64,000 nucleotides of DNA from Planctomycetota bacterium. Its GTDB lineage: Bacteria > Planctomycetota > UBA11346. Position numbers and translations under genes: made by a program. Below the pieces are notes generated by a model. It was not told the DNA's origin. It saw only the letters and a program-made list of their open reading frames with translations, and ran no database searches. The DNA lies in the NCBI GenBank assembly GCA_038213805.1, contig JBBQSO010000001.1, forward strand, positions 64,001 through 128,000, in the 5' to 3' direction. Below, piece after piece: positions 15,004 through 58,418 of the stretch (its first letter is position 1; every line of letters begins with the position of its first letter).

Positions 15004-15036
15004 GCGCGGTCCGCGGGGGTGGCTGGGCACAGATTA

Positions 15037-32149: not shown

Positions 32150-32161
32150 TAGAACGTTCTA
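32150..32161. promoter_or_regulatory. Candidate LacI-family operator TAGAACGTTCTA
   Basis: Perfect palindrome with central CG, 50 nt upstream of the GH30-LacI pair. Confidence 0.6.
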
Positions 32162-32210
32162 TCATGCCCGAGAACTCGTGTTATCCCCTGCCAACCCCAG
32201 GACCGCTTCC

Positions 32211-33659: not shown

Positions 33660-33675
33660 ACGCAGGCGCTGCGCC

Positions 33676-34698
33676 ATGCCCGCGACCCTCAAGGACATCG
33701 CGCGGCTCTCCGGCTGTTCGTTCCAGGCGGTCAGCGCCATCCTGCGCGACCAGCCGGGCACGCGCTTCAGTCCGGCGACGCGCGCGCGCGTGCTGCTGGT
33801 CGCGGAGCAGCTCGGCTACCGGCCCAACGCCTCGGCGCGGGCGATGCGCTCGGGCCGCACCGGCTGCATCGCGGTGCTGCGCGGCACCCATCCCAACCAC
33901 AGCTCGCTGAGTCCGCACCTTTTGGGCGGCATCATGCGCGAGCTCGACGGGCAGGACCTGCACGCCGCCATCCTGTCCCTGGATGATGCGCAGCTGACCA
34001 GTCCCGAGCACCTGCCCAAACTTCTGCGCGAGGTGGTCGCCGACGGTGTGCTGATCAAATACGACCATCGCATCCCACCGCGCCTCGGCGCGCTCCTCGC
34101 GCAAGCCGGGATCCCCGCGGTGTGGGTCAACAGCAGACAGCCCGCGGACTGCGTTCATCCGGACGACCTTGAAGCGGGTCGACTGGCCACGGAGCGCCTG
34201 ATCCGGCTTGGCCACCGTCGCATCGCCTACGCGGACTTCTCGTACGACCTCGCCGACGCGACGGAACACTACTCGGCCCACGATCGCCATGCCGGTTACC
34301 GCACCGCGATGCGCGCGGCCCGCCTCGCGCCGCGCCTGCTCGGCGGCCGCCGCGGCCACCCTGCGCCCGCCGCGCGGCTCGATTTCTGCCTCGACACCCT
34401 GCGCGGTCCCGAACGCCCGACCGCAGTGATCGGCAACAGCGCATGGAGCACCTGCCCGTTCTGGCACGCCGCCCTGCGCCTGGGCCTGCGCGTGCCCGCC
34501 GACCTGTCGCTGCTCACCTTCGAGAACTGGCGGCACGACGCACTCGGCCAGGAGCTGACCCAATACCTCGTGCCCGAGGCGGAGATGGGTCAGGCGGCGG
34601 TGAGCAGGCTGCTGGCGCTGCTCGCGGCGCCGGGAGTCGCGCAGGCACCTCTGGTACTGCCGTTCACGTGGGTCCCAGGGAATCCGTGGCGGGGGTGA
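33676..34698 (+). CDS. LacI-family transcriptional regulator
   Basis: TLKDIARLSGCS..AVS, LGYRPNASARAM, LGHRRIA, GLRVPADLSL. Confidence 0.95.
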   Translation: MPATLKDIARLSGCSFQAVSAILRDQPGTRFSPATRARVLLVAEQLGYRPNASARAMRSGRTGCIAVLRGTHPNHSSLSPHLLGGIMRELDGQDLHAAILSLDDAQLTSPEHLPKLLREVVADGVLIKYDHRIPPRLGALLAQAGIPAVWVNSRQPADCVHPDDLEAGRLATERLIRLGHRRIAYADFSYDLADATEHYSAHDRHAGYRTAMRAARLAPRLLGGRRGHPAPAARLDFCLDTLRGPERPTAVIGNSAWSTCPFWHAALRLGLRVPADLSLLTFENWRHDALGQELTQYLVPEAEMGQAAVSRLLALLAAPGVAQAPLVLPFTWVPGNPWRG

Positions 34699-39731: not shown

Positions 39732-39844
39732 GGTGCAGAAGTCTCCGGGCCGGATGACCGGCGGGCGGGGAGTGTCCCATGGTTCCCCGCCCCGCCAAGG
39801 GGGTGCGGGTGCGGCCTGCGGAAGGTGCTCCACCCAGACCGCGA

Positions 39845-39858
39845 CGATTGCGCAATCG
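39845..39858. promoter_or_regulatory. 14-bp palindrome CGATTGCGCAATCG, candidate operator
   Basis: Perfect palindrome in the divergent region between the SSS transporter and the ECF sigma gene. Confidence 0.35.
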
Positions 39859-39977
39859 CATGCAGGGCCGCCATTTGCAGGCAGATGCAAGCCCCAGCAT
39901 GCGGCCTTGGGCGCAGCGTGGCACGGGGGACGCCTGCAGGCAGGGTTGCACAAGCGCGAGTACGGCCAGGCATCCTG

Positions 39978-40002
39978 GTAACGATCGCGGGGGTACGGTA
40001 GA
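39978..40002 (+). promoter_or_regulatory. Candidate ECF promoter GTAAC-N15-GTAGA (autoregulatory)
   Basis: 9 nt separate it from ATG 40012; recurs at 44034 and 47387. Confidence 0.65.
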
Positions 40003-40011
40003 CTGTCCTGC

Positions 40012-40548
40012 ATGGGTACGGATCTCTCGGCCGCCGATCACGAGCGCTTCACCCGGCATTGGACCCTGGCCAGTCCGATGGTGGCGGACTACATCAGCGC
40101 CCTGGTGCCGAATTTCCATGAGGCCGAGGACCTGCTGCAGAACGTCGCCATCGTCGTCCTGCGCAAATTCGACCAGTACGACCAGGCGCTGCCCTTCGCC
40201 TTCTGGGCGATGGGCATCGCCCGCTATGAGGTATTGAGCAAGCGGCGCGAATTCTCGCGGCGGCGGGTGCTCTTCACTCCAGATCTCGCCGATCAGGCGG
40301 CCGAGCTCCAGCAGGAGATGAGCGCCGAGCACGAAGCCCGTCAGCGCGCCCTGCGGGACTGCCTGCGCGCGGTCGGTGAGCGCGCGACCACGGTGCTGCG
40401 CATGCGCTATGAAGAGGCACTCGAGCCGCGCGACATCGCCGAGCGCCTCGGCATGTCGTCAGGCGCCATCCGCGTGATGCTCAGTCGGGTGCGCTGCGTC
40501 CTCCAGGAGTGCATCCAGGCGAAGATCGCCGTGGCGGACCACCGCTGA
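40012..40548 (+). CDS. ECF sigma-70 factor (Planctomycete/Verrucomicrobia type)
   Basis: EAEDLLQNV, FAFWAMGIARYEV, LRMRY..IAERLGMSSGAIRVMLSRVR..LQECI. Confidence 0.93.
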   Translation: MGTDLSAADHERFTRHWTLASPMVADYISALVPNFHEAEDLLQNVAIVVLRKFDQYDQALPFAFWAMGIARYEVLSKRREFSRRRVLFTPDLADQAAELQQEMSAEHEARQRALRDCLRAVGERATTVLRMRYEEALEPRDIAERLGMSSGAIRVMLSRVRCVLQECIQAKIAVADHR

Positions 40549-42398
40549 TGACCGTGCCGCTCCCCCTCATCGATGCCTTCCTGGATGACCACCTGGACGA
40601 TGACCAGACCGTCGCGCTGCAGACCTGGTTGGCAGCCGATCGCGAGCACCTGCGGGCCTTCCTGCGCATCACGTCCGTGCACCGGGCGCTGCGCCGCGAG
40701 TTCACCAGCGCCCAGGCGCACGTACGCTTCTCAGCGCAGGCACCGAGCGCCACCACCCGTCGGTTGCGCATCGCGGCGCGGCGAGGCGGATCGCGGCGCC
40801 CGGTCGGGATGAACCCGTGGTGGCTGCGGGGCGCGGGCATCGCCGCCGGCCTGCTGCTGGCGATCGGCCTGGTCATGGGCGGTCACCGCGCCGGGGATGA
40901 CGCGGTCCAGATCGCCGCCGGTTCCGCCGTTATCGAGCGGCCGACGGGCCCGGTGCCGGCGCATGCGGGCGATGTGGTGCAGCGTGCCGATGCGATCGTT
41001 GCTGCGCAGGGCCCCGTCACCCTGCGCTTCGCCGATGGCACCACGGTGCGACTCGATGCGGATGCCCGGATCGTGCTGACGTCCGCAGGAAGCGCGGACC
41101 AAGGCAAGCGCCTGGAACTGGGCATGGGTCGGCTTTCCGCGAGCGTCGCCAAGCAGCCCAGCGGTCGTCCGCTGACCATCACCACCGCGACCGCGACCGC
41201 GGTGGTGGTCGGCACCGCATTCAGCCTGAGCAGCTCCGCGACTGCGACCCGCCTGGACGTCGAACACGGTCGCGTGCGGCTTGAGCGCCAAGTCGATGCC
41301 GCAACGGTCGAGGTCGGCGCCGGCGAATACGCGGTGGCGGACCCGGGCAGCGCATTGGTAGTGCGCAAGCAGGGCACCCTGCCGGGCGATGCCCCCCTGC
41401 ATGTCGGTGGCGCCCGGCACAACCAGCTCATTGGGCCGGATGGGAAGCGCTTCGTGTTGAAGGGCGCACAGGTCGGCCTCACCCTCTTCTATGCCCAGCT
41501 CGGCTCGCCGTGGGAATACCGGCTGCTCGCGGACCGGGCCGTGTTCGAGCGCGCCTTCAGCGGGCGCCTCGCACAGCTCGCGGCGATGAAGGCCAACGGC
41601 ATCAACACCGTGCGCATCTTCGTCGGCGGGGCGGTGGCCCACGACCCCAACAACGGGTATGCGACTCCAGAGCAGGGCTACGGCGGGTTCGCCGGCTATG
41701 TCCAGCGCCTGGTCACCTATGCCGACGATGCCCGCAACCAGGGGTTCCACGTCATCTTCTGCTACAATGGCGATGATGGGTGGTCGCAGGATACGAACTG
41801 GCCTGCGTATCGCAGACTGTTCAGCGCACTGGTGCCGGCGCTCGCGACCAACGGCAACGTGCTGTTCGAACTCGTCCATGAACCGGACATCGAAGATCGC
41901 GAATGGAGCCGGTGCAGCGTCCGCGCCATCGACCTTTTCCGTTCACTCGGATATCGGGGCCCACTCGTGGTCGACCTCGATCATCGCTGCAACTGGTGGT
42001 ATGAGCCCATCGTCGACGAAGTTTCCCGGCATGATCAGCAACTGGTCTTCAGCCTGCACTTCGCGAAATGGGTGGGCTGGGCGCACACCGAGGAAATGCT
42101 GCGCAACGGCGCCCATCGACCGGTGATCCTCGGACAGGTGACACCCAATGTGGGCAATGACCTTGGCGAGCCGGACGCCATCGCGGCCGTGGTCGCCATG
42201 CGTGCGCTGGTCACCCAGGAAATCGCGATCGGCGCCGTGGCGGCGGAATGGAATGCACGCGATGGCCAGCCTCCGACGCCCGGCACGGGCATGACAGACG
42301 ACGATGGCGCCCTCGTGCCGAACTCATGGGGCGTTGGATATCGTGATGGATTCAGTGGTCGCCTGCCTGATTGGCTCCCTGTCGCAACGCCTCCGTGA
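40548..42398 (+). CDS. Anti-sigma factor: FecR domain fused to a GH5-like TIM barrel
   Basis: TGATG overlap with the sigma gene; LIDAFLDD N-domain; TM helix; FecR FADGTTV..AVVVGTAF; GH5-like FVLKG, GINTVRI, VLFELVHEP, FSLHF, PVILGQ. Confidence 0.85.
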   Translation: MTVPLPLIDAFLDDHLDDDQTVALQTWLAADREHLRAFLRITSVHRALRREFTSAQAHVRFSAQAPSATTRRLRIAARRGGSRRPVGMNPWWLRGAGIAAGLLLAIGLVMGGHRAGDDAVQIAAGSAVIERPTGPVPAHAGDVVQRADAIVAAQGPVTLRFADGTTVRLDADARIVLTSAGSADQGKRLELGMGRLSASVAKQPSGRPLTITTATATAVVVGTAFSLSSSATATRLDVEHGRVRLERQVDAATVEVGAGEYAVADPGSALVVRKQGTLPGDAPLHVGGARHNQLIGPDGKRFVLKGAQVGLTLFYAQLGSPWEYRLLADRAVFERAFSGRLAQLAAMKANGINTVRIFVGGAVAHDPNNGYATPEQGYGGFAGYVQRLVTYADDARNQGFHVIFCYNGDDGWSQDTNWPAYRRLFSALVPALATNGNVLFELVHEPDIEDREWSRCSVRAIDLFRSLGYRGPLVVDLDHRCNWWYEPIVDEVSRHDQQLVFSLHFAKWVGWAHTEEMLRNGAHRPVILGQVTPNVGNDLGEPDAIAAVVAMRALVTQEIAIGAVAAEWNARDGQPPTPGTGMTDDDGALVPNSWGVGYRDGFSGRLPDWLPVATPP

Positions 42399-42409
42399 AG
42401 GATTCCCAC

Positions 42410-43909
42410 ATGCACCTGCGCACGACCACCACTGTCCTGGTTCTAGCGGCGCTGTCCTGCAGCGCGCTCCATGGGGCCGTCCATGAGGTCGGTCCGACGA
42501 CTCCGCTGGTGTTGTCGCTGGCCGACGTCGCCGGGGGCACCGATGTACGCAACAATGCCAAACACAATCCGGGCGGCGGCTACCTTAGTGTCTACGACGG
42601 CATCAAGGAATTCGGCTACCCGTCCACCCACGGCAACCAGCTTGGCAACACCGCGCTGGTCAATGACCATGTCTACTGGGATAGCAGCCCGGGCGGCCTC
42701 GACTTCACCCACACGCCACCTCCCGACGCGGGCTGCGGCAGTGCCTTGTGGTGGCCCATCCCCGGGGAATGGACAGCCTACCAGTTCGCGGTGACCAGCC
42801 CGGGAACCTATTCCGTGCTCTGCCGCTTCTCGTCATCGTGGGGACCGGCCAAGCCGGCCACGGCGGTGCTCACCATCGATGGCGTCGCCAGCGCGCCCGT
42901 GCCGCTGACTCCGGACGATCCGAAGCTGTGGTCCGATACGCACTACCAGGTGGGCGGGTGGTGGGGACACACCATGGTCAGCGGCACCTTTCCGGTCGCC
43001 TGGTCGCTGGGCACCGGCGCCCACGTGCTGCAGGTGCGCATCGACAGCTTCCCGGACAAGCCCACGGACCACGGCAATCTCTGGATCCATTATTTCAAGA
43101 TCACGTCGAGCAAGACCGCCGGCAGGGCGCCGGCCGTGGTGCTCAAACCTGTCGTGCCCCGCCAGCTGGCCGCGGCGAACGCGGCATTCAAGACGGCAGA
43201 GGAGTGCGAGCAGAAGGGGCGCCTGGGCCAAGCCATCGCCGCCTACGAGAAGGCGGCAGGCGGAGCGGTAGCAGGCAGCGATCTGAACGAGCGCGCCACG
43301 ACCAGGGCCAAGGCGCTGCGTGAGGCCGGCGAGCAGAAGCTCGCCGCTGCACGCGCCCTCGCACCCGAGGCGGCAGCGCCCGTCCTGGCGCGGATCGCGA
43401 GCGACTATGCCGGTAGCGACGTGGGCGACTCCGCACGTCCCTCGTCACCGGCGCAGACCCAGGCACCGCCCCAGAAGGCCCCCGCGGACACCGGCACGAC
43501 CGGGTGGACTGCACCCGACAAGCAGCAGGCGCTCTCCGCGCTCCGCACCATGATCCTGGACACCGCGGGGCGGATGCCGATCACAGCGACCATCGCGCTG
43601 TTCGGGAAGCCGCAGGCGGTGGTCGTCACCAAATGCGACAAGCAGGGTCTGGATCTCAGACTCACCGGCTCCAGCTCGGAAATCACCCTGCAATGGCAAC
43701 AGCTCGGCAACGAGGACCTGGGGCGGCTGGGGCAGGCCTGCATCCTCGGTCGCTCGGACCAGGCCCTTGCCGTTGGGGAGTGGTGCATCGCCTGCGGGCT
43801 CGAAACCCTGGCGAAAGCCACGCTGAATCGCGCGGCCGAACTCGATTCGCGGTTGGCGCCGGCAGTGGCCGAACGGCTACAGGCGCTCCACGCCAAGTCC
43901 GCGCCCTGA
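42410..43909 (+). CDS. Secreted protein: CBM6/35-like N-domain, TPR-like helices and uncharacterised C-terminal domain
   Basis: Signal peptide; GEWTAYQFAVTSPGTYSV, GAHVLQV, NLWIHYFKI; N-domain is paralogous to that of the next gene. Confidence 0.72.
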   Translation: MHLRTTTTVLVLAALSCSALHGAVHEVGPTTPLVLSLADVAGGTDVRNNAKHNPGGGYLSVYDGIKEFGYPSTHGNQLGNTALVNDHVYWDSSPGGLDFTHTPPPDAGCGSALWWPIPGEWTAYQFAVTSPGTYSVLCRFSSSWGPAKPATAVLTIDGVASAPVPLTPDDPKLWSDTHYQVGGWWGHTMVSGTFPVAWSLGTGAHVLQVRIDSFPDKPTDHGNLWIHYFKITSSKTAGRAPAVVLKPVVPRQLAAANAAFKTAEECEQKGRLGQAIAAYEKAAGGAVAGSDLNERATTRAKALREAGEQKLAAARALAPEAAAPVLARIASDYAGSDVGDSARPSSPAQTQAPPQKAPADTGTTGWTAPDKQQALSALRTMILDTAGRMPITATIALFGKPQAVVVTKCDKQGLDLRLTGSSSEITLQWQQLGNEDLGRLGQACILGRSDQALAVGEWCIACGLETLAKATLNRAAELDSRLAPAVAERLQALHAKSAP

Positions 43910-44033
43910 TGGCCTGACGGCGGGTCGCCATCCGCGCAGATCCCAACCACCTGGAGGAAGCGATCTGCCGCGTCCTGCAGGGATCGCCGTTTTGCGACCC
44001 GGTGGGACGGCGACAGAGTGCGGTGGAAACTCC

Positions 44034-44058
44034 GTAACGCGCAGCGTCGGCCGGTAGA
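44034..44058 (+). promoter_or_regulatory. Candidate ECF promoter GTAAC-N15-GTAGA
   Basis: GTAACG-N12-CGGTAGA, identical in boxes and spacing to 39978-40002. Confidence 0.65.
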
Positions 44059-44135
44059 TCTCGGGAGAATGAACGTCGTGGGCGTACGCACCGTCCGCCG
44101 CCGCGCTCTCTCATCGTGACCATCGGAGGAATCCC

Positions 44136-46259
44136 ATGAGCATCGCCCATCCCATCGCAGCTGGTCCGCTTCGGACGATGGCGTCGCGCGTTCGCCGCCG
44201 CTCCGCCTTGATCGCCATGCTCATCGCGCTGTTGATGGCCGGGGCGCAACCTGCCCAGACCGCGACCTTCGACGTGAGCCCAACCAGCCCGGCGATCATC
44301 CCGTTCTCCAGCGTCATCGGCGGATCGGATGCGGCGAACAACGCGAAGAACAACGCGAATGGCGGCTATTTCAGCGAATTTGACAATGTCAGTCAGTTCA
44401 ACTACCCGGCCGGTCATGGCAACCAGCTCCAGAACACGGCGATGATCAATGACAGCACCAACTATTTCGACAACGTGACCTGGCAAGGCGGACAGCCGGC
44501 CGGCTTGTCACTGTCGGGCGTTCCCGCCCCGGACGCGGGCTGCGGCGATGCGGCCTGGTGGCCGGCTCCCGGCGATTGGGTCTCGTACCAATTGAATGTC
44601 ACCACCGCCGGCACGTACACCGTCCTCACCCGTTTCTCGACGGCGTGGGGTCCGACCGGCACCGTGACCTACCATATGACAATCGATGGGGTCAGCAGCG
44701 GGCCAGTCACCATGCACCCGGACGACAACGCGTATTGGACGCCTGGAGCAGGCGGATTCCAGCGTCCGATCGATGGCTGGTGGGGACACAATTATGTCCC
44801 GGGCACCATGCCAACCGGCTGGAGTCTGGCCGTAGGACCGCACGTGCTCAAGGTCTTCATCGACAACTGGCCCGGCACAGCGCCTGGGCCCAGCTCCTCG
44901 GGCCCGGGCGACATCTGGCTGCATTACTTCAAGGTCCTGGCTGGCGGCACGCCGGTGTCCGGGCCGGTGCCCGCACCGACCTTCTCATTCTCGCCACTTC
45001 TGACCGCCACCGCCAATGGCTTGATGGCGACTGGTCCCGTGACGGTCACGATTGAGGACACCGATGCCACCGCGGTCATCCATTACACCACCGATGGCAG
45101 CACGCCGATGGCATCCTCGCCCACGTATACTGCGCCCTTCATCATCAGTGCCCTGGGCGCCGCGACCATCAAGGCACTGGCGATCGACGGTACCGACAGC
45201 GCGGTGGCGACCACGACGTTCACCATCGCTGCGCCCCCGACGGTGGCGACCGCGGCCAACGCCGCGCCGAACCCGGTGACGGGCACCACCACGGTGCTGA
45301 GCGCGCTGGGCGCAACCACCGGCGCGGGCGGCGAGCCGACGCTGACCTACACCTGGTCGACGACCGGGTCGACACCGGCGGCGGTGCGCTTCAGCGCGAA
45401 CGGCAGCAACGCCGCGAAATCGGTCACCGCCACCTTCGCCGGCGCCGGCACCTACAATTTCCAGGTCGCGATCGCCAACCCCTTCGGCTTATCGGTGACG
45501 AGCAGCGTCAGCGTGGTGGTGGACCGGACCGTGACGGGCGTGGCGGTGGTGCCGGGCACGGCGTGGATCTCGGCCGGCTCGAGCTTCACCTTCACCGCCT
45601 CGGCAGTCGACCAGTTCGGGGCCGTCATCTCCGGGACTCCGACCGTCACCTGGTCGGCGACGGGCGGCAGCATCACGGCGGGCGGAGCCTACACCGCCGG
45701 AAATGCCGCGGGCACCTTCTCGGTCACGGCGGCTTCGTCGACGGGCAGCGGGTCGGCGACGGTGGTGGTGACTGCCGGCTTTGCGGTCAGCATGACCTTC
45801 CAGCCCGCGCAGACGCCGCCCTTCGGCAACTACCTCGTCGACAACGGTGCGGTCTTCGGCGATCGCGGCAACGGCCTGAGTTACGGCTGGGACCAGGACC
45901 TCAGCACCTGGGCGCGCGAACGCCAAGGCAAGGGTGGCACGGCACCCGATGCCGGCCACGACCGCCTGATCTACGTGCAGCGCGCGGGCAATGCGGTCTT
46001 CCGCATCACCGTCCCGAACGGCACCTACAACGTCCACATCATCAGTGGTGACGCCGCCTACTCCGCCAGCGTCTTCAAGGTGTCCGCCCAGGGCGTGCTG
46101 GTGGTGGATGGGACGCCGACGCCGGGCAACCGCTGGATCGAAGGCACCCAGACCGTGACCGTCACCAACGGCACGATCGCGGTGACCAGCGCCAGTGGGG
46201 CGCAGAACAACAAGATCTGCCAGCTCGACATCGCCGTCGTCCCCGCAGCCGTCAACTAG
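44136..46259 (+). CDS. Secreted multidomain protein: CBM-like N-domain, chitobiase/FN3-associated domain, PKD-like, Ig-like and C-terminal galactose-binding-like domains
   Basis: GGAGG RBS; signal peptide; IHYTTDGSTP; PKD-like repeat shared with the M36 gene; FQPA...YLVDNG.VFGDRGNGLSYGW..VPNGTYNV. Confidence 0.8.
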   Translation: MSIAHPIAAGPLRTMASRVRRRSALIAMLIALLMAGAQPAQTATFDVSPTSPAIIPFSSVIGGSDAANNAKNNANGGYFSEFDNVSQFNYPAGHGNQLQNTAMINDSTNYFDNVTWQGGQPAGLSLSGVPAPDAGCGDAAWWPAPGDWVSYQLNVTTAGTYTVLTRFSTAWGPTGTVTYHMTIDGVSSGPVTMHPDDNAYWTPGAGGFQRPIDGWWGHNYVPGTMPTGWSLAVGPHVLKVFIDNWPGTAPGPSSSGPGDIWLHYFKVLAGGTPVSGPVPAPTFSFSPLLTATANGLMATGPVTVTIEDTDATAVIHYTTDGSTPMASSPTYTAPFIISALGAATIKALAIDGTDSAVATTTFTIAAPPTVATAANAAPNPVTGTTTVLSALGATTGAGGEPTLTYTWSTTGSTPAAVRFSANGSNAAKSVTATFAGAGTYNFQVAIANPFGLSVTSSVSVVVDRTVTGVAVVPGTAWISAGSSFTFTASAVDQFGAVISGTPTVTWSATGGSITAGGAYTAGNAAGTFSVTAASSTGSGSATVVVTAGFAVSMTFQPAQTPPFGNYLVDNGAVFGDRGNGLSYGWDQDLSTWARERQGKGGTAPDAGHDRLIYVQRAGNAVFRITVPNGTYNVHIISGDAAYSASVFKVSAQGVLVVDGTPTPGNRWIEGTQTVTVTNGTIAVTSASGAQNNKICQLDIAVVPAAVN

Positions 46260-46274
46260 AACCCGCGAGGCACC

Positions 46275-46598
46275 ATGCGCCTGATCCCCTTCCTCATGAT
46301 CTCCTTCGCCCTGGTAGGCTGCGGTAGCGGAGGGAATTTCGCCTTCGCTCCTGGCACCGTCATCAGCCGCACCAGGGTGACCCACTTCTGGCCCAATGGG
46401 CAGATGAAGGACACCGGCTTCATCGCCACCGACAGCCAGGGCAACACCCACCAGGTCGACCAGTGGCAGTTGTGGTTCGAGAACGGCCAGCCGCAGTGGC
46501 AAGGCACCTATACCAGCACCGGCGCGGTGGATGGCAGCCAGCCCTGGTTCGAGTGGAACAGCAACGGTTCGGTGCGTGACACCTGGATCGACCGCTGA
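46275..46598 (+). CDS. Small lipoprotein with MORN/YwqK-like beta-hairpin repeats
   Basis: Lipobox LVGC; FWPNGQMK, WFENGQPQWQGTY, WNSNGS. Confidence 0.78.
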   Translation: MRLIPFLMISFALVGCGSGGNFAFAPGTVISRTRVTHFWPNGQMKDTGFIATDSQGNTHQVDQWQLWFENGQPQWQGTYTSTGAVDGSQPWFEWNSNGSVRDTWIDR

Positions 46599-46667
46599 TC
46601 GCGTCCGGGCCTCTGCTCGTCGACACCACACATGTTCCCGTCCGATTGCGGGCGGGGAAAGAGTTCC

Positions 46668-47342
46668 ATGCGCCTGCGCATCCTGGCATCAGCCCACCTC
46701 ATCCTCGGTAGCGCTCTCGCCTGCCACGCCGCCGATGATTTCTACCGCCGCGCCAGCGTGCCGGACCTCTCCCACGAGTCATCATCGTGCGTCGACGATC
46801 TGCGAATCGGGTATTGGTTCATGCCGCTGGCCACCAACATCGACACCAGGCTGAACGGGGCGACGAGCTACCAGAAGCACGGTCACCTGCAATCAGGCAG
46901 CCGGACCTCGCTGCAGTGGGCGCTGCCGTTCACCGACCTGCGGAATGACGGGGATGGGCTGCTCGCCCTCGAACTCTCCAACATCCGATATCATCAGGAT
47001 CAGAGCACCACCGATCCGCTGATCGATCTGAACGCCTATGCGTTGACCCTGCATGTTGATCTGGCCTGGCCGATCGCCGGCGGTGGCCACATGGAGCTCG
47101 GGCCATTCCTGGGCTATGGCGTGTCTTCGGTAAGCGCACAGCACTGGAATGGCTTGTTCTGCGAGTTCGGCGGGCGCCTGGGCGCCTACTGGACCTTCGC
47201 CCGGCACCTGCAGGTCGGCCTCGATCTGCGCTACCTGGGCACGTATGCGCGCCAGGATTTCGCGGTCGGCGCCGCCAGTGAAGAGGTCGTGATCAAAACC
47301 AAGGGCGGATCCGCCGGCGTGCAGTTCGGCTACCGGTTCTGA
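46668..47342 (+). CDS. Outer-membrane beta-barrel protein (about 8 strands)
   Basis: Signal peptide, alternating amphipathic strands (ELGPFLGYG, GGRLGAYW, VGLDLRY), C-terminal GVQFGYRF signature. Confidence 0.8.
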   Translation: MRLRILASAHLILGSALACHAADDFYRRASVPDLSHESSSCVDDLRIGYWFMPLATNIDTRLNGATSYQKHGHLQSGSRTSLQWALPFTDLRNDGDGLLALELSNIRYHQDQSTTDPLIDLNAYALTLHVDLAWPIAGGGHMELGPFLGYGVSSVSAQHWNGLFCEFGGRLGAYWTFARHLQVGLDLRYLGTYARQDFAVGAASEEVVIKTKGGSAGVQFGYRF

Positions 47343-47386
47343 GCGCGGCGCAGCCGGGCGCTGCTCCACCCTCCGAAAGTTTTCCG

Positions 47387-47411
47387 GTAACACCTCGCCA
47401 AACCAGGAAGA
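47387..47411 (+). promoter_or_regulatory. Candidate ECF promoter GTAAC-N15-GAAGA
   Basis: Same spacing and same 9-nt gap to an ATG (47421) as the copy upstream of the sigma gene. Confidence 0.55.
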
Positions 47412-47420
47412 CCCACAGGC

Positions 47421-49631
47421 ATGGAGCCAGCACTCGGTTCGGCACATGTCAGGAACAACGCGCAGACAGGCGATAGAGCATGCGTGCCGATGCCGGTGCG
47501 CTGTGGAGCAATGCCGTGTGCGGGCAAAACGCCCGGAACCCCTGGGATCACCCGCTGCGGCTTCACGCTTTTTGAAGTCGCCATCTCGCTCGGCCTCGCC
47601 GCCTTCGGGGTGGTCAGCGTCATGATGCTCTTCCCGCAGGGCATCAAGGCCCAGCAGATGGCCCGCTCCCGCTTCTTCGCCGCCACCAAGGCGCTGGAGA
47701 TGGTCGACAGTTACAACTCCTTCAACAACGCCACCGCGAACATCGACAACGAGGCGCCCGATCCCTGGGACGTCCCGACCGGTCGCTGCAGCTCTGCCAA
47801 CGACCTCGAGCGCCGCCTCGCCTCGCCGCGTTTCGGCATCGCGCCCCTGCCAACGGAGATCGCCAAGCGCCTCGATTCCGATGGCGACGAGATCCGGCAG
47901 ATCCTCGGCGACGGCGGTTTGCTGTATTATTCCCAACCGCAGGCGGCCGCCGGCTTCATGGAAACCGGGACGCCCGCGGCGCCACCGGTCGAGGCCCAGC
48001 GCCTGGTCTTCGCCGTGGTCGGCTATGCCCAGGACAACGCCATCCACGTGTTCCCCTGGAAGGCATGGCCGTACTACACGCCCTATCCGTCGCCGCCGAT
48101 GCACGGCTACCACCAGTACGAGGCCGATCCGGCGGTCCTGCAGTCGGTGCCGGCGGATGCCCTGCATTACTCCGCGGGCAGCTTCACGGTGGATCCTTTC
48201 CAGAATTCCCGGGACTGGGACACCGATCGTATGCTTATCGAGGACGCCAACGACCCGGACATGCGCAAGGTCTTCACCTGCACCAACCAGGCGGCCTCCG
48301 CAGGCGCCCCCGCCGGTTCCGTCGAGTTCGGCTACAAGCAGCACTTCAGGGAGCGGAGCCTGGACTCGGCGCTGCGCTACTGCGCCGCCGCCCTGTGGTA
48401 TTGCGAGCGCAAGTTTCCCGGCGCGGCGGCCTCATACTTCCTCACCAGCGCACCCTTGACGACCTTCCCGACCTCGGTCCCGCAGGACCGCAAGGGGGAC
48501 CTGGTGAACTGCCTGCGTTTCCTTTCGCACGCCACCACCTGCCTGACCGCCTTCGCCAGCAAGGGCACGCTGGATGCGGGCGTGATGGTTCCGCAACTGA
48601 CCGTGGATTCCCTGACCTCGCCGGCGGCCCTGGTGACGACGAGCGTCATCATCAACCAGCACGAGAGCTGCCTCGACCTGGCCATGCTGTTCGCCGCGAG
48701 CTACCCCTACGACTGGGCCGCTCCGCGACCGGAAAACCGCATGATCATGATGGATCATCCACTGCTGGAATACGATCTCTTCCCCACCAGCTCCGCGCCC
48801 ATGCTGAGCGGCAGGATCTGGCCCGGAAATCCGCTGATCCCGGCGAACCAGTGGCGTCCCATCGCCGCCCAGCCGATCGTGCACATCGGGCGCAGCTACC
48901 AGTTCCCCAGCGAAGACATCCCCAGCGCCAATCCGGTGTGGTCCTGGTGGGGCTCCACCACGCCTCCGACGCCACCCTATGCGGCCGGCCAGCCCAGCAC
49001 GTTCTGGGGTGACCCCAGCCATTTCACCCTGACCAACACCTTCGAGCCCAGCGAGCGCTGCCGGCAGCTGGTCTTCTGGGCGGTCGATTGGATGCAATAC
49101 GAGGACTGCGAGACCGCCCCGAGCGCACCCATCGACGCGAGCCGCTACACCCGCTCAGCGCCGAAGGCGAGGGCCGCAGCGGGCGGCCCGGTGGACACGG
49201 TCGATAAGCTGTTCGATGCGCCGGCGTTCATGGAGTGGGCCCAGCAGAGCACCAACCGCAATCCGGAGAAGACCATGATCTTCTCGGTCCCGACCGCCGG
49301 GAAGCCGGATGGGTACACCGGCGCGGATGTGGGACTGCCCAAGACCTTCTCCGATGGCTTCGCCTGGACCCTGCGCTTCGGAAACGACGGCGTCCCGACG
49401 CCGCCGACGTGGAATCCCTGGGCCTTCGGGCACAAGCGCGACCAGGGCATGACGCCCCTTGCGCCGAGCGACCCGGATCCGCGCAAGCTCTTCCTGGGGC
49501 GCTTCGGCGCCGATCGCAACTTCAATGGGCGGCTTGATCGTGGCACGCTCCCCGTCTCCGTCCGCCTCCGCGCCCAGACCGTGGCGCGCTTCAACTACTA
49601 CGATCTGCGCGTCCCCGCCATGATCCGCTGA
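47421..49631 (+). CDS. Large prepilin-type protein (PilV/GspI-like N-terminus)
   Basis: RCG|FTLFEVAISLGLAAFGVVSVMMLFPQG class III signal with Glu5; ~660-aa head domain. Start may be 47421 or a downstream ATG such as 47511. Confidence 0.82.
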   Translation: MEPALGSAHVRNNAQTGDRACVPMPVRCGAMPCAGKTPGTPGITRCGFTLFEVAISLGLAAFGVVSVMMLFPQGIKAQQMARSRFFAATKALEMVDSYNSFNNATANIDNEAPDPWDVPTGRCSSANDLERRLASPRFGIAPLPTEIAKRLDSDGDEIRQILGDGGLLYYSQPQAAAGFMETGTPAAPPVEAQRLVFAVVGYAQDNAIHVFPWKAWPYYTPYPSPPMHGYHQYEADPAVLQSVPADALHYSAGSFTVDPFQNSRDWDTDRMLIEDANDPDMRKVFTCTNQAASAGAPAGSVEFGYKQHFRERSLDSALRYCAAALWYCERKFPGAAASYFLTSAPLTTFPTSVPQDRKGDLVNCLRFLSHATTCLTAFASKGTLDAGVMVPQLTVDSLTSPAALVTTSVIINQHESCLDLAMLFAASYPYDWAAPRPENRMIMMDHPLLEYDLFPTSSAPMLSGRIWPGNPLIPANQWRPIAAQPIVHIGRSYQFPSEDIPSANPVWSWWGSTTPPTPPYAAGQPSTFWGDPSHFTLTNTFEPSERCRQLVFWAVDWMQYEDCETAPSAPIDASRYTRSAPKARAAAGGPVDTVDKLFDAPAFMEWAQQSTNRNPEKTMIFSVPTAGKPDGYTGADVGLPKTFSDGFAWTLRFGNDGVPTPPTWNPWAFGHKRDQGMTPLAPSDPDPRKLFLGRFGADRNFNGRLDRGTLPVSVRLRAQTVARFNYYDLRVPAMIR

Positions 49632-49639
49632 GCCGACCC

Positions 49640-50902
49640 ATGCGCATCCTGCGAACCAGTGGCTTCACCCTCATCGAGATGCTGATCGCGATCGCGCTGG
49701 GCGTGGTCATCATCACCACCTGCGCCGCCGGCTTCCGCGTGGCCAGCCAATCGATCAGCGTCGCCAACCGCCTGGCGCTCGAAAACACTTTGATGCGCTC
49801 CGGGTACTTCGCCGCCGTCGAGGAGGCAGACTACTGGGAGTCGTTCGATGATCCGAACGCCACGCCCGCGCCTGCGACGTCGCTGCGGGGCAGCGCCTCG
49901 CTGACCTACCATGGCGTCGCCACCGCGCGCGGCATGGCCTTCACGCCCCTCACCCAGATGGGCTTCACCTGCGCAGCGCCCACGAACAGCGAGGCCGACC
50001 GCGGTTGGGACAGCGCCTACCAGTGGCCAGCCAGCGATCCGCGCGGCTGGTACCATGGCCAGATCCCGGAATTCATGCACAATATCGACGGAAAATTCGG
50101 CTTCTACGAGGTGTTCACCCACCTCAGCAGTGCGCCGAACCTCTCCAGCACCGCCTTGGTCCAGAGCGCCAACCTGGTGGCATATGGGGTGGCGAGCCCA
50201 CTGCACACCTGGCTGCCCAACCAGCTTGAGGGGATGAAGAACGCGCTCGGATATTACGGCCTCTACGACTACTTCCCGGCCAACACCTTCTTCGGCTACT
50301 ACGGCCACGGCGATTGGGGGGACCAGTCCCTGTCCCATGAATGGTCGAACCCGGACAGCCCCAATACCGCCTCGCCAAACGGCTCGCTGTTCAAACTGAG
50401 CGGCTTCTCGCAGGGGTACGACTACTCGACGGTCAACGGCCGGAACAACAACACCAACAGCGTCTCCTTCCCCATCGTCCCGGCCTCGGGCTTCACCGAG
50501 TTCAGGACCGACACGCTGGCGGTCCAGGACCTGGTCAGCCGCAACCACAGCTCGTGGGTGACCAACACCTACCAGGCCGCAGGCACCAGTGCCGGCGTCA
50601 GCGGCTTCCTCGGCAATGCGCTCGTGCGCACGCCGCTCATGACGTCCCGGCCCGCCTACTGGCCCGAGCTGCGCGTCCAGGTCGCGCGCTACGCGAATCA
50701 GTCCCGCTTCGCCACCCTGTGCCGGATCAGCTGGCGCAGTCCGCTGACCGGTGCCACGGCCGAGGCCGCCTTCACCGTGCTGAGCACGACCTTGCGCGGG
50801 GCCCGGCAGCAACGCCGCCAGGGCGGCGGTTGGGCGACCTGGACGAATTCCATCAGCGATCCCATCCTGCGGACCACCGATGCCACGCTCGACAGCCCCT
50901 GA
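49640..50902 (+). CDS. Prepilin-type protein (PilW/GspJ-like N-terminus)
   Basis: TSG|FTLIEMLIAIALGVVII. Confidence 0.88.
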   Translation: MRILRTSGFTLIEMLIAIALGVVIITTCAAGFRVASQSISVANRLALENTLMRSGYFAAVEEADYWESFDDPNATPAPATSLRGSASLTYHGVATARGMAFTPLTQMGFTCAAPTNSEADRGWDSAYQWPASDPRGWYHGQIPEFMHNIDGKFGFYEVFTHLSSAPNLSSTALVQSANLVAYGVASPLHTWLPNQLEGMKNALGYYGLYDYFPANTFFGYYGHGDWGDQSLSHEWSNPDSPNTASPNGSLFKLSGFSQGYDYSTVNGRNNNTNSVSFPIVPASGFTEFRTDTLAVQDLVSRNHSSWVTNTYQAAGTSAGVSGFLGNALVRTPLMTSRPAYWPELRVQVARYANQSRFATLCRISWRSPLTGATAEAAFTVLSTTLRGARQQRRQGGGWATWTNSISDPILRTTDATLDSP

Positions 50903-50909
50903 GGTGCCC

Positions 50910-51893
50910 ATGCCGAGCGCCTCCCGATCTGCTCGCGGCCCGCGCTGCGGAACGGTGCTCATCCTGGTCGCGGGGATCTGCGCGCTGCTGGCATCGCTGT
51001 CGCTCGCGTTCATGATCACCATGCGTTCCGCCGCGGAGGAGAGCCGGGCGCTGGTCGCTGATGCGCAGGCGCGGATCATGCTCTATGCCGCCTGCAACTA
51101 CATCCAGGAGGCGTCACGACTGGGATATGACAACGGCCTTGACCATGGCGAGGCGCACGGCTGGATCGATGTCCGTGACGGCAGTGAAGGCCCGAAGATC
51201 AACCTTGGCGATCCGCCGCGGTTTCCCCGCAATGTGCCGCAGCGCTTCCCCATGTACGTCTGGCAGCAGACCCGCTACGCGATCAGGCCGACCACCGCCT
51301 ACAATCCCATCAGCACGGACGAAGCCGATGACAGCCGTTTCGGACGTCCGTACCTCGCCAATCCGGATCCGCAGCCGGTCGCCACGGAATTCGCCAGTGC
51401 GGACACCTCGGGACGGGTCAAGGACCACCTCCATGGCGATGCGCTGATCGCGCCCGACCGGCAGCCGGTCGGCACGCCGCGGTGGAACAGCGTCAACCTC
51501 TCGTGGTTCCGCATCGTGCGCATCGACAAGGCCCGTTTCCTGGTGACCTGCGGCGCCGGTTCGACCCAGGGCTTCCGATCCTACGCGGAGGCAGGCATCC
51601 AACTTGGAGCGGATTCCGCGAACCAGTTGTTCGGAGACGCGGAGATGTTCGCGCAGTTCCAGGACCAGGAGGTCCGCGCCTGGTACCTGGTCGAATGGAG
51701 CCCGGCGGTGATCGGCGGCATGAACAACACCACCGATGGCGGCATTATCGGCGCCGAGCATTTCATCATGCTGCCGGAGAACGCCAGCCACCAGTACTAC
51801 CCCGGTGGAGTGGCGAGCCAGTCCAATTCACGCAACATGGTCGGAACCATCCGCTGGATCCAGCGGCTGACGACGGAGCCCGCGGCCTGGTGA
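50910..51893 (+). CDS. PilX/GspK-like pseudopilin
   Basis: RCG|TVLILVAGICALLASLSLAF (no Glu5), followed by QARIMLYAA helix; GAGG RBS. Confidence 0.75.
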   Translation: MPSASRSARGPRCGTVLILVAGICALLASLSLAFMITMRSAAEESRALVADAQARIMLYAACNYIQEASRLGYDNGLDHGEAHGWIDVRDGSEGPKINLGDPPRFPRNVPQRFPMYVWQQTRYAIRPTTAYNPISTDEADDSRFGRPYLANPDPQPVATEFASADTSGRVKDHLHGDALIAPDRQPVGTPRWNSVNLSWFRIVRIDKARFLVTCGAGSTQGFRSYAEAGIQLGADSANQLFGDAEMFAQFQDQEVRAWYLVEWSPAVIGGMNNTTDGGIIGAEHFIMLPENASHQYYPGGVASQSNSRNMVGTIRWIQRLTTEPAAW

Positions 51894-51928: not shown

Positions 51929-54223
51929 TCACCGCGGTGGCAGGCCGATGGTGATGGCGCTGAAATCGACGGGATTGAAATGGGTCAGCAGTCCGACCTT
52001 GCCCTCCACTGGTTCGCCGAGGTCGGCAGCAGTGATGATGGCCGCCCCATTGATCGCGACGGTCACCTTTCGGCCGATCCGGGTCACCGTGACGGTGCTG
52101 GTCTTCCACTTGCCGGTGCCGACGCAGGCAGCCTGCGCCACCTGCGTCCGCATGCCCTTGGCGACGCGCGCCAACGCGACGCTGCCCAGGCCATCGATCG
52201 TCAGGGCATCGTAGTCCTGCGCATCGGTGAATCCGAAAACCAGACCGGCGACGTTGTCGAAGCGCGGCATCATGGACACCGTGAATGCGAGGTCCTTCAA
52301 AGTCAGGGCGTCGTAGACGCAGAGGTCGAGGCCCTCTGCCGACGTATGGTTGTATTTTCCTTCTGCGCACGACCAGGTGCCACCGAGGGGCGTCCAGTCC
52401 TTGGCGACGCCAGCGCTGAAGTCCGCCACATAGGACTTGGCTGCGGTGGTTCGGCTGATGGCGATACCCATCAGCACCGGTGCGCCGCGCAGGGCCTTGG
52501 CGACGATGTCGAGCTGCTGGTTGCGCACCTCGACGGCGATCGGGCCGCACTTCGCCCACCCACCAAGCGGCAGGTCACCGAGCCCGGAGATCACCACCCC
52601 GCCGCACGTGAGATCGAACACGCGCGCATGGGCGCGCTGGTTCTCGGCGGTCCAGAAGGTGACCTCGTAACCCCCATCAGGGAGCTTGAAGCTCAGCGCC
52701 AAGAGGTCGCTGCGCGCTGTGGAGATGCCGGAAGAGAGCATCGCCCGGGTGTCCGCGTCGGGCGGAGGCGGGATCAGGGCCAGCGACACCGAGACCCTGC
52801 GTGCATTCGTGAGGGTCATGCCATCCGCTTCGGCCAGCTTCTGGGATTGCCAGCGCCCACCCTCGATGATCACCGCCTCGCCGCCGAGATCGATGCCCTT
52901 GAGGAAGGCCGGGGCAGTGGCGGCGACGGGCGGTGCAGCCGGCGCAGGCAACTGCTCGCCCAGTGTGACCGGCACAGTGACGTCCGGGGGCGTGAGTGTG
53001 GCTGCGATCACGGGCGCAGCGGGCGCAGCCCCATCGGCCGGAGGTACAGGTGGCGTCGCGACCGCTTCCGGAACGGCGAGGGCCGCGCTTCGCGATGCGT
53101 GCAGAGCGGTTTCCGACGCCTCGCGGGGCGCGGGAAGCGCCGGCGGCTGCGCCACGATGGGCGCCGCAGGCGACGGTTGCGCGGGCAAAGGTCGATCTGC
53201 ACGCGGCGCGCCCGGAGCCGCATGCGCACTCGTGGGCTGGGTCGAGTCGTGACGGCCTGGATTGCCCGGCGGTTTGAGCATCACCGCCACGATCACCGCG
53301 ATCACGGCACCAACCGCCACGGTTGCACCCAGCACCGGCGATGGCAGGCGGCGGCGGAGACGTTGGGATGGAATCCTCGCGCTGCGGCGGCTGTCCACGG
53401 CAGCGGAGCGATGACTGTCCGCGGACGTGGCGCGGAGTGCCGGCGCTGCGGCGGCTGCCAGGATCTCGTCAGCGAAGGCCGTCATCGTCGCCATCGACGG
53501 TTCCCCGAGGGCCTCGCCGAGCAGCAGGTCGATCCGCACCTGGCGCTCGAATCTGGCCGCAAAGGGCAGGTCGTCGCGTACGCGCTGGGCGAGCAGGCTC
53601 CGCGAATCCGGGTCGATCACGCCCGCGAGGAAGTCCTCGATGAGGGCGGTCATCACACTCTCCTGACGCTGCACGCTCGCCCCTGGCGACGGCGGTTGGG
53701 GCTGGTCGATGGCGGCGCGGGCCACCACCAGGCCCGCATCGACCTGCGCCCGGTCCCAACCGCGCTGCGTCGCCAGCGCCGCATTGCCCAGGCCGCCCTG
53801 GTACCTGCCGAGGATCAGGTCGCGTTGTTCCGGATCGAGTCGGGCGATCCCCACCTGGATCCGGCCGGCGCCGCCCGGCGCATCCACACCGCTCTGCAAC
53901 GCTTCCCGGCCGGTCTGCGCCAGCAGGTAACCGAGCGGGTCCTGGATGGCGATCGCGGTGGCCGCGCCCGCGTCGAGATGCCGCGCCAGGGCGGTCGCGG
54001 CCAGGACCTGCAATCCGGCACGTTGGCCGATCGCAGTTTCCGCCTGGGGTCGACTGATCCACTGCGCCCACAGGTCCCGTTCGAGCGCGTCGATCTGCGC
54101 CCGCGTCGCGGCGAAACCGGCCAGGAATGTCCGCAAGGATTGGCGATGATCCGCCAGCACCTGGACGACGTGGTCACGGTCGAGCGCGAGGGCGGCAGAA
54201 GGCTGACGGCGAACCGGCGACAT
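51929..54223 (-). CDS. Membrane-anchored fusion: degenerate ECF sigma, anti-sigma-like domain, TM helix, Pro/Ala stalk, malectin-like and DUF1080-like domains
   Basis: HRQSLRTFL (sigma2-like); LDPEQRDLILGRY (sigma4-like); LIEDFLAGVID; TM VAVGAVIAVIVAVML; FLKGIDLGG..YEVTFWTAEN...RVFDL; AGLVFG..GKVGL. Start uncertain. Confidence 0.75.
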   Translation of the reverse strand: MSPVRRQPSAALALDRDHVVQVLADHRQSLRTFLAGFAATRAQIDALERDLWAQWISRPQAETAIGQRAGLQVLAATALARHLDAGAATAIAIQDPLGYLLAQTGREALQSGVDAPGGAGRIQVGIARLDPEQRDLILGRYQGGLGNAALATQRGWDRAQVDAGLVVARAAIDQPQPPSPGASVQRQESVMTALIEDFLAGVIDPDSRSLLAQRVRDDLPFAARFERQVRIDLLLGEALGEPSMATMTAFADEILAAAAAPALRATSADSHRSAAVDSRRSARIPSQRLRRRLPSPVLGATVAVGAVIAVIVAVMLKPPGNPGRHDSTQPTSAHAAPGAPRADRPLPAQPSPAAPIVAQPPALPAPREASETALHASRSAALAVPEAVATPPVPPADGAAPAAPVIAATLTPPDVTVPVTLGEQLPAPAAPPVAATAPAFLKGIDLGGEAVIIEGGRWQSQKLAEADGMTLTNARRVSVSLALIPPPPDADTRAMLSSGISTARSDLLALSFKLPDGGYEVTFWTAENQRAHARVFDLTCGGVVISGLGDLPLGGWAKCGPIAVEVRNQQLDIVAKALRGAPVLMGIAISRTTAAKSYVADFSAGVAKDWTPLGGTWSCAEGKYNHTSAEGLDLCVYDALTLKDLAFTVSMMPRFDNVAGLVFGFTDAQDYDALTIDGLGSVALARVAKGMRTQVAQAACVGTGKWKTSTVTVTRIGRKVTVAINGAAIITAADLGEPVEGKVGLLTHFNPVDFSAITIGLPPR

Positions 54224-54453
54224 AGGACACCCTGGGGACAGCACCTGCACGACTCCGGCCCGGCGCGCAGCAATCCGGCGGCCGGACAGCTTGCGTTCAC
54301 GACCGGAGACTGGGTCAGCATACGCCTGGAACCACTGTGCCACAAGCCGGGCCCGCTACCTGCAGAACTCCCGGACGATGGCCACAAGGATGTACAAATG
54401 GTTGCCACCGCAATTCTTGCGGACTTTGTCCCAGAGCCTCGAAAGTTCCGCGA

Positions 54454-58151: not shown

Positions 58152-58418
58152 CAGGCATGCCACGCCACCCCTGCCTCCAGCGGTGTGGGCCGCACTCGTC
58201 TTCTTCGGGGGCATGATGGCTCTCCTCTGCGCAGCCGCCCCCTAGATCCGACGGCGCACCGGGATCGTTACGGCATTTGTAGCGCGCACCCGCGATCGTA
58301 ACCGGGCGCCGGGCGCGCAGCCGGGAATCGCACGCGGCCGGTGCGCAGGTGCCGTGCTTCTCGCCCCCTCGTGACGGCGCGTGGCGCCGCGGCGGCACCA
58401 CCCGCACGCGCGCGGCCG

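Follow-up and report, generated by a model that had tools for sequence, protein, structure and literature searches.

An ECF sigma factor locus of a Planctomycetota bacterium that may place one of twelve GspI/J/K-like pilin trios under glycan-responsive control

The window analysed here is a stretch of 64,000 nt from a Planctomycetota bacterium (lineage UBA11346; GenBank assembly GCA_038213805.1, contig JBBQSO010000001.1, positions 64,001 to 128,000). Between positions 39978 and 51893 it carries a block of nine genes (g1 to g9), all on the + strand, in three groups of three with a promoter-like motif ahead of each group. The explanation that we favour, with confidence evenly balanced between belief and doubt, is a glycan-responsive extracytoplasmic function (ECF) regulon by which two secreted binding-type proteins, a lipoprotein and a small barrel would be switched on together with one of many filament-tip sets of the GspI/J/K kind. 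The tip set would be the trio g7-g8-g9.

Results

Layout of the block and promoter motif

All coordinates are positions in the window. The source genome (G000; 5.5 Mb, 180 contigs, 90% complete; window about 68% G+C) has its contigs designated by C-numbers, C1 being the one that includes the window. L-numbers designate the trio-related loci that were compared; these come from public metagenome-assembled genomes (MAGs), and some from G000 (e.g. L010 and L085 on C24). The block contains the following features.

39978..40002, + strand: P1, promoter-like motif GTAAC-N14-GGTAGA, ending 9 nt before the sigma-gene ATG
40012..40548, + strand: g1, ECF sigma factor of 178 aa, TIGR02989 (Rhodopirellula/Verrucomicrobium family)
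40509..42398, + strand: g2, FecR-type anti-sigma factor with a C-terminal domain that is weakly GH5-like (below the Pfam cut-off; Atlas features)
42371..43909, + strand: g3, secreted protein with a signal peptide, an N-terminal domain of about 260 aa common to g4 and a helical C-terminal half
44034..44058, + strand: P2, GTAAC-N14-GGTAGA, 77 nt upstream of the g4 start codon (ATG with a GGAGG ribosome-binding site)
44136..46259, + strand: g4, secreted protein of 707 aa with a signal peptide, the N-terminal domain shared with g3, CHB_HEX_C/Fn3_assoc, Ig-like repeats and a C-terminal beta domain
46275..46598, + strand: g5, small lipoprotein of 107 aa (lipobox LVGC read from the sequence; weak MORN_2 match)
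46632..47342, + strand: g6, candidate small outer-membrane beta-barrel of 236 aa with a signal peptide and the C-terminus ...GYRF (terminal Phe)
47387..47411, + strand: P3, GTAAC-N14-GGAAGA, ending 9 nt before the first g7 ATG, with the same geometry as P1
47421..49631, + strand: g7, giant pilin-like protein (736 aa counted from its first ATG), prepilin signal ...RCG-FTLFEV
49640..50902, + strand: g8, pilin-like protein of 420 aa, prepilin signal SG-FTLIEM, conserved C-terminal block TTLRGARQQR
50880..51893, + strand: g9, GspK-like third member of 337 aa, N-terminus RCG-TVLILVAG, lacking Phe at +1 and Glu at +5

Translation of g2 probably begins with the ATG at 40548, overlapping the g1 stop codon, and that of g3 with the ATG at 42410, giving a gap of 12 nt behind the g2 stop. 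The other gaps within groups are 15 nt (g4-g5), 33 nt (g5-g6) and 8 nt (g7-g8), and g8 and g9 overlap. A preliminary description of the block, made from the sequence alone, had listed nine co-directional genes, and all of them were found on the + strand. Its statement that TonB receptor, SusD and intact hydrolase are absent was upheld: Pfam searches of the nine proteins gave no match to a TonB-dependent receptor (Plug/TonB_dep_Rec) or to SusC/SusD, and none above threshold to a hydrolase.

P1, P2 and P3 are intergenic, lie on the coding strand and stand before g1, g4 and g7. The pattern GTAAC-N14-GGWAGA was matched three times in the window (0.02 matches expected) and nowhere else in the 5.5-Mb genome, on either strand and with spacers of 13–15. 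The motif was derived by reading the intergenic DNA at these same three sites (a repeat search missed it), a circularity to be held against it; independent support therefore comes from a relative, L012, which is about 90% identical. Both boxes were intact there at all three sites, with 0 of 33 box positions changed, and 10 of the 42 spacer positions differed (2, 3 and 5 by site, P3 having 5). An AAC in the –35 box is typical of ECF promoters. A sigma-70-type promoter scan of the block returned 0 promoters. A terminator scan returned three terminator-like sites, fewer than in shuffled sequences and none between genes.

The single promoter-like motif that had been described before three units is thus real. 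Since one ECF-type promoter precedes three units, a sigma-controlled regulon is suggested, in which the g1 sigma factor would read P1, P2 and P3. The distance of 9 nt between P1 and the sigma ATG implies autoregulation and a leaderless transcript or a very short leader. On these sequence features, the block is best explained as three operons (g1-g3, g4-g6 and g7-g9), each with one private type of promoter.

Sigma factor and anti-sigma factor

The g1 product matched Sigma70_r2 (30.9 bits), Sigma70_r4_2 (34.9 bits) and TIGR02989 (139.8 bits, cut-off 124.55). It has sigma-2 and sigma-4 domains only and exceeds the cut-off of its family model, as expected of an ECF (group 4) factor.

In g2, a FecR domain (PF04773, 54.3 bits, cut-off 24) follows a single hydrophobic helix read from the sequence at about residues 105–125, and the N-terminus matched DUF4880 at 23.6 bits, just below the cut-off of 25. 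This is the architecture of a FecR-type anti-sigma factor: an N-terminal anti-sigma part, one membrane helix and a FecR domain. For the C-terminal part, all 30 Atlas feature matches were GH5 clusters (best score 0.96); a single-sequence PDB search gave no match below E 0.1. In an alignment of this part with three GH5 enzymes that the genome also encodes, the acid/base Glu was kept (HEP here, NEP in L012), and the strand-7 position read PVILGQV (PVMLGQV in L012), i.e. G-Q where the three enzymes have G-E. The ectodomain is weakly GH5-like, with Gln probably in the place of the nucleophile. A glycosidase domain that binds without hydrolysing would be apt for sensing; the ligand of g2 may be a glycan. 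Two points tell against this assignment. The match to GH5 (PF00150) reached 22.0 bits, under the cut-off of 23.5, and the nucleophile position is ambiguous, as a nearby GEP could align there instead. In the 'FecR-GH5 anti-sigma' first described, the FecR half is therefore firm and the GH5 half weak in Pfam, with the Atlas matches in its favour. The FecR genes found beside other trios have PA14 or LamG domains at their C-termini.

The trio proteins resemble a GspI/J/K-type tip

N-termini of the trio families were mostly read by pattern; those missing the strict pattern (9 g7-type, 8 g8-type and 12 g9-type) were read by eye. Glu at +5 was found in 70 of 70 g7-type and 63 of 63 g8-type N-termini and in none of 65 of the g9 type, and every readable g7-type and g8-type N-terminus had Gly or Ala at –1. 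In g8, the N_methyl match scored 24.7 bits against a cut-off of 21.2. Three class III (prepilin) signal proteins had been claimed; g7 and g8 carry such a signal (G-FTL(F/I)E), and g9, with a non-canonical N-terminus and no Glu5, does not. This is the pattern of the GspI-GspJ-GspK tip (PDB 3CI0) and of PilV/W/X: three adjacent genes, of which the first two encode prepilins with Glu5 and the last a protein without it. The GspK N-terminus of Escherichia coli K-12 (RG-VALLIV) lacks Glu5 as g9 does.

The g9 model (predicted local distance difference test, pLDDT, 77.1; predicted template modelling score, pTM, 0.66) combines a long helix at the N-terminus with a sheet and a helical insert. Compared with 48,161 PDB chains, it matched best 3ci0_K, GspK of the GspK-I-J complex, with Z 8.2 and a root mean square deviation of 2.6; this Z is modest, best values of 7–8 being typical of models without a clear match. 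The alignment comprised 102 residues spanning model residues 53–332. No other chain reached Z 8, and the next matches were single helices (Z of 5.9 or less). At this modest score, g9 shows the features of GspK: its model has the fold of a pilin into which a further domain is inserted, Glu5 is missing and the gene comes last in its set.

Co-folding was done with the membrane helices removed, using g8 residues 31–420 and g9 residues 46–337. The three runs scored 0.04, 0.71 and 0.80 (median 0.71) and three controls 0.00; of 157 solved complexes 116 attain the mark used, as do 2 of 215 mismatched pairs. The runs agreed in at least 10% of contacts and partner pLDDT was at least 61. The predicted interface joins g8 380–391 to g9 323–336, in each family the block with the highest conservation. 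The prediction supports binding of g8 and g9 to each other. The likeness of the module to the tip of a pilus or type II secretion system (T2SS), as originally proposed, is sustained by the structural match of g9 and by the g8/g9 co-fold: the trio resembles a GspI/J/K-type filament tip in which, as in GspI/J/K, the last member is closest to GspK and members 2 and 3 are predicted to be in contact.

The trio also differs from GspI/J/K. It has no sequence similarity past the N-terminal helix, its proteins measure 736, 420 and 337 aa against 125, 195 and 327 aa for E. coli K-12 GspI, GspJ and GspK, it is encoded apart from the machinery in 12 copies, and it has no conserved fourth gene of the GspH/FimU type. 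All three families combine a conserved scaffold with variable, insertion-rich middle parts; in the g7 family, a variable middle is flanked by a conserved N-terminal third and a conserved C-terminus.

Several results weigh against the tip likeness and its link to glycans. With Foldseek, the g9 model had no PDB match at E ≤ 0.001. Family profiles searched against PDB sequences gave nothing for g7 and g9, and for g8 only the N-terminal pilin helix. By sequence, g9 does not qualify as GspK: PF03934 (T2SSK) was not matched at E ≤ 0.01, and hhalign of the g9 family with E. coli GspK aligned 24 N-terminal residues only, at 3% probability. Likewise, hhalign of the three trio families with GspI, GspJ and GspK of E. 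coli K-12 gave N-terminal segments only. One of the three co-fold runs reached no more than 0.04, and because the GspI-J-K complex has already been solved, the g8/g9 result could reflect likeness to it. The g7 model (pLDDT 54.1) was too poor to use. Finally, no direct tie of the trio to glycans was found. Pfam, NCBIfam and PDB profile searches, together with structural searches for g7, detected no carbohydrate-binding domain in g7, g8 or g9, so 'glycan capture by pilins' and 'PUL (polysaccharide utilisation locus) analogue', both part of the preliminary description, remain conjecture.

A wide structural search with g7 gave generic helical bundles at best (Z 5.7). SusD homologs appeared at Z 4.4–5.0, within noise, and were given no weight.

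The trio is a stand-alone cassette of one family

When the nine proteins were searched against the genome by tblastn, the trio was found in 12 copies, counted as 11 full and one cut, with 29–44% identity. They lie on C1, C7, C72, C86, C33, C37, C58 (two, one cut), C3, C26, C24 (cut) and C81. Apart from a g6 paralog on C24, no other gene of the block recurs with the trio in the genome. With twelve copies, the 'swappable' module of the preliminary description is a reasonable idea.

Relatives of g7 are encoded in 127 stretches of public genomes. Fifty-nine loci were kept, all from Planctomycetota MAGs and 15 of them from a single MAG. The order g7, g8, g9 was constant wherever the contig permitted; the g9 end followed the g7 start on the same strand in 60 of 72 cases, and many of the other 12 reach contig ends. 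Tandem and back-to-back or divergent trios in other MAGs (L036, L040, L041, L053, L058, L067 and L068) suggest local duplication as the route by which the family expanded. The g7 relatives have no Pfam domain, and their source names are mostly 'hypothetical protein'.

Genomes of the phylum were scanned with the g9 profile at E of 1e-10 or better, with at most seven candidates scored per genome. The g9 family was present in 8 of the 301 genomes sampled (G000 included), all in the window's own family; it was found in 7 of the 15 other genomes of this family and in 0 of 285 elsewhere in Planctomycetota. Against 1.84 billion representative proteins, the profile matched 351 at E ≤ 0.001 and 314 at E ≤ 1e-10; the best 150 of the 351 were all strong family members, with no bridge to GspK among them. 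The trio is a stand-alone cassette, found only in one family of Planctomycetota.

Filament and secretion machinery

The core machinery of type IV pili or T2SS, on which the proposal of a tip module depends, is present in the genome: nine T2SSE matches (four in frames of 632–670 aa, five in frames of 372–414 aa), six secretin matches, one prepilin peptidase and four frames of the GspF/PilC type. A T2SS-like operon on C5 has GspE, GspF, a T2SSG-domain pseudopilin and H-like and I-like genes, after which the contig ends. On C26, genes of the PilT, PilB and PilC types lie about 11 kb from one trio. A canonical GspK was not found in the genome, the best T2SSK match (18.5 bits) being below the cut-off. 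That the C5 operon already holds its own G, H-like and I-like pseudopilins is a further argument against the tip explanation that we favour.

These genes bear on two other explanations. In the first, the trios are pseudopilus tips matched to cargo: each would fit one secretion machine to a particular exported set, and the sigma factor would induce the cargo (g3 and g4) together with its tip. The best structural match of g9 is indeed a T2SS protein, and the genome has a T2SS-type operon yet no canonical GspK. In the window, the trio and the two secreted proteins have the promoter motif in common, and elsewhere trios lie directly behind large secreted-type proteins (beta-helix/PA14 in L001, GDSL/CHB_HEX_C in L010). 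However, many trios have no secreted neighbour and stand instead beside isocitrate dehydrogenase, nitrite reductase or protein kinase genes. The C5 contig stops inside the pseudopilin genes, so GspJ and GspK could lie beyond its end, and with about 1,500 residues the tip would be of very great size for a piston in the periplasm. We regard this explanation as unlikely.

In the second, the N-terminal helix is a mere membrane anchor and the trio forms a complex of the periplasm or inner membrane (e.g. for uptake or envelope structure) that never enters a filament. In its favour, sequence searches with the globular parts revealed no relative among known pilins, the proteins are far bigger than usual minor pilins, and the cassettes almost never adjoin assembly machinery, although one trio of this genome, on C26, lies about 11 kb from PilB/PilT/PilC genes. 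Against it, the full cleavage motif with Glu5 is kept in all g7- and g8-types seen, and the third member always lacks it as in I/J/K sets; the GspK-like fold of g9 and the fixed order of the three genes also count against it. This second explanation appears quite improbable.

Link between sigma/FecR genes and trios

Three trios of the genome lie downstream of sigma/FecR genes and in the same direction: that of the window, one on C72 with a FecR-PA14 gene directly upstream, and one on C24, where a FecR-LamG gene is followed first by two esterase-type genes. Of the 24 FecR genes of the genome, three have one of the 12 trios co-directional with them and no more than 7.5 kb downstream, for about 0.2 expected by our own arithmetic. 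Among trios of other MAGs with a 3-kb upstream flank, 4 of 49 had co-directional sigma/FecR genes and 3 had divergent ones; 4 of 37 with a downstream flank had sigma/FecR genes downstream. The link is real and confined to a minority of trios.

Contig C24 (L010) has another private motif of the ECF type. It consists of GTAAGGAWTCGCG with N14-type spacing to CGAGT, and its only two sites in the genome, at 53356 and 55594, precede the sigma gene and the first (GDSL) esterase gene. Two observations limit the generality of sigma control. Where both flanks were readable in other MAGs, sigma/FecR genes were within 3 kb of 7 of 28 trios, so most trios are without them; and GTAAGGAWTCGCG is absent before the C24 trio, 6 kb downstream. 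By eye, no motif shared by sigma gene and trio was seen before the trios at L002/L021, L013–L015 and L010.

It may thus be asked whether the trio simply landed beside an ECF-controlled glycan locus, P3 being a coincidence and trio expression independent of the sigma factor. A free-standing cassette with very varied contexts, the missing motif on C24 and the –10 box of P3 (GGAAGA), one base off P1 and P2, would all fit a chance neighbourhood. It would leave unexplained why the sole three genome occurrences of the motif are these sites, why the P3 boxes are kept in L012 despite five spacer changes, and why P1 and P3 both stand 9 nt ahead of an ATG. We consider it very unlikely.

Neighbours of trios were surveyed at L001–L011 and L013–L039 (112 of the 212 proteins within 3.5 kb of the L013–L070 trios), with genes called by a rule based on G+C at third codon positions that misses some genes. 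Glycan-related neighbours, for which no enrichment is claimed, were GH2, GH78 rhamnosidase, GH27, GH29, SGNH esterases, NPCBM, and LacI and AraC regulators. The others included one TonB-dependent receptor and many housekeeping genes. In L015, from another MAG, a toxin/immunity-like pair (Ntox46 and Tsi6 Pfam matches, 14494–15503) lies just behind a sigma-linked trio.

The nine-gene block was found complete in L012 only, with 83–98% identity gene by gene, and by tblastn its order is not repeated within the genome. The conserved or repeated synteny that the first proposal had envisaged is thus not seen beyond this close relative. In three other species of the genus (genomes 86–89% complete), no GH5-type g2 ortholog was found; only the FecR half was matched, at 38–39% identity. 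From these comparisons, the block looks like a recent assembly of modules at the level of the species.

Secreted proteins, lipoprotein and barrel

The domain common to g3 and g4 is 42–43% identical over 261–284 residues, so that, for the two secreted proteins first described as having a CBM-like domain in common, the sharing is confirmed. The carbohydrate-binding part is a lead only: the domain matched GH115_C at 21.1 bits, below the cut-off of 24.1, and CBM6/CBM35/GH115_C clusters in Atlas at 0.81–0.84, and it is possibly a sandwich of the CBM6/CBM35/GH115_C type. No Pfam match was obtained for g3, and single-sequence PDB searches with the N-terminal and C-terminal domains of g4 gave nothing below E 0.1. 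At window 1–4362, a protein of more than 1,450 aa has repeats that resemble the Ig-like middle of g4 (35–52% identity over 95–217 aa).

The autotransporter beta-domain match of g6 was weak (24.5 bits against 26). The g6 paralog on C24 (38% identity; 40851–43214, i.e. L085 4851–7215) lies directly behind a FecR-PA14 anti-sigma gene, so the small barrel seems to travel with FecR-type sensors and not with the trio.

Neighbouring genes in the window

A sodium:solute symporter gene (37989–40013, – strand; NF007790, E 5e-201) is divergent from the sigma gene, and P1 lies in the shared upstream DNA. The symporter could be an inner-membrane sugar importer of the same pathway. Convergent on the trio, an 804-aa protein is encoded at 51929–54343 (– strand). 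Its N-terminal part is weakly sigma-like (TIGR02989, E 0.0028) and its end weakly similar to 3-keto-disaccharide hydrolase/DUF1080; in L055 a homolog stands behind a trio on the same strand. Another FecR-domain gene is present at 7710–8840 (G000 C1:72022–72303), in a second small upstream unit unrelated to the trio. Further glycan-related genes, at 56097–58214 (– strand) and 31956–34698, encode a BNR/Sortilin-Vps10 repeat protein, a weak GH59-like protein and a LacI regulator.

Discussion

Under the glycan-responsive regulon that we favour, the membrane anti-sigma factor g2 would hold the sigma factor at rest. Binding of a beta-glycan or an oligosaccharide by the periplasmic GH5-like domain of g2 would release it. 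The freed sigma factor would raise expression of its own operon, including secreted g3, then of g4 (with the same possibly carbohydrate-binding domain as g3), lipoprotein g5 and small barrel g6, and lastly of one of the twelve alternative g7-g8-g9 trios. The trio might serve as a priming or tip complex of the GspI/J/K (PilV/W/X) kind on a type IV filament. The machinery for this filament would come from other places in the genome, such as the T2SS-like operon of C5, PilB/PilT/PilC of C26 and the products of the six secretin matches. Both the assembly of the trio at a filament tip and the choice of machine are points that we infer. If the trio is a tip complex under sigma control, induction would alter what sits at the filament tip.

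Alternative minor-pilin sets have precedents. In Myxococcus xanthus, differentially regulated minor-pilin/PilY1 sets prime one machine, according to portions of two articles (PMC7541494, PMC9109919), and part of a third describes differently regulated minor-pilin sets on one machine in Synechocystis (PMC13759059). As far as these portions go, those organisms have two or three sets each, against 12 here and at least 15 loci in another MAG, and control by an ECF sigma factor with a glycosidase-like anti-sigma factor is not described in them. The trio protein families are new, and g7-g9 have no Pfam match of the PilY1 type.

FecR-type ECF pairs linked to carbohydrate scavenging have been catalogued, among them ECF240 (former ECF10) of Bacteroidetes (Casas-Pastor et al., 2021, PMC7826278; portions of the article), and the word 'pilin' is absent from the main text of that paper. 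The block resembles FecI/FecR and ECF240 in having an ECF sigma factor and a FecR-domain anti-sigma factor beside carbohydrate-related genes, and in an apparently autoregulated promoter with an AAC-containing –35 box. It differs in that the block has no TonB-dependent transducer or SusC/SusD, the anti-sigma factor carries its own sensor domain and the sigma factor belongs to TIGR02989. By the Pfam results, the SusC/SusD pair of a Bacteroidota-type polysaccharide utilisation locus is likewise absent from the block.

The Verru_Chthon cassette is a multi-copy cassette with prepilin signals, of unknown role, in the Planctomycetes–Verrucomicrobia–Chlamydiae group; it has four genes, against three in the trio. 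When its models (TIGR02596, TIGR02598, TIGR02599 and TIGR02600) were compared with the trio, only the g7 N-terminus matched, with 16.3 bits for TIGR02598 (cut-off 51.4); by these models the trio does not belong to this cassette. Among the titles and abstract openings of the literature searched, no work on this trio was found, nor any on ECF control of a minor-pilin set in Planctomycetota.

An open question in planctomycete biology is how whole polysaccharides are bound and taken up in the absence of systems of the SusC/SusD type. In this locus a single sigma factor, three promoters, a probable glycan sensor and one of many tip-like trios make up a defined unit that can be tested. Even on a sober reading, the three trio protein families are unnamed and have no Pfam model. 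If the trios truly are alternative tips, 12 or more per genome would far exceed the two or three of Myxococcus and cyanobacteria and would point to substrate-specific tips. A bolder possibility, which we think improbable, is that the family maintains at least a dozen giant tip trios as an interchangeable stock for shared type IV filament machines, with individual trios turned on by dedicated polysaccharide sensors, for a pilus-based capture of specific glycans that is independent of SusC/SusD. If that were true, the co-induced secreted binding proteins and the small barrel would complete a route into the periplasm. Portions of the article by Boedeker et al. (2017, PMC5394234) describe dextran on planctomycete pili-like fibres of unknown composition, by a route that is only speculated upon there; the capture of glycans by tip trios would give a molecular handle on this binding of dextran to the pili-like fibres of cultured planctomycetes.

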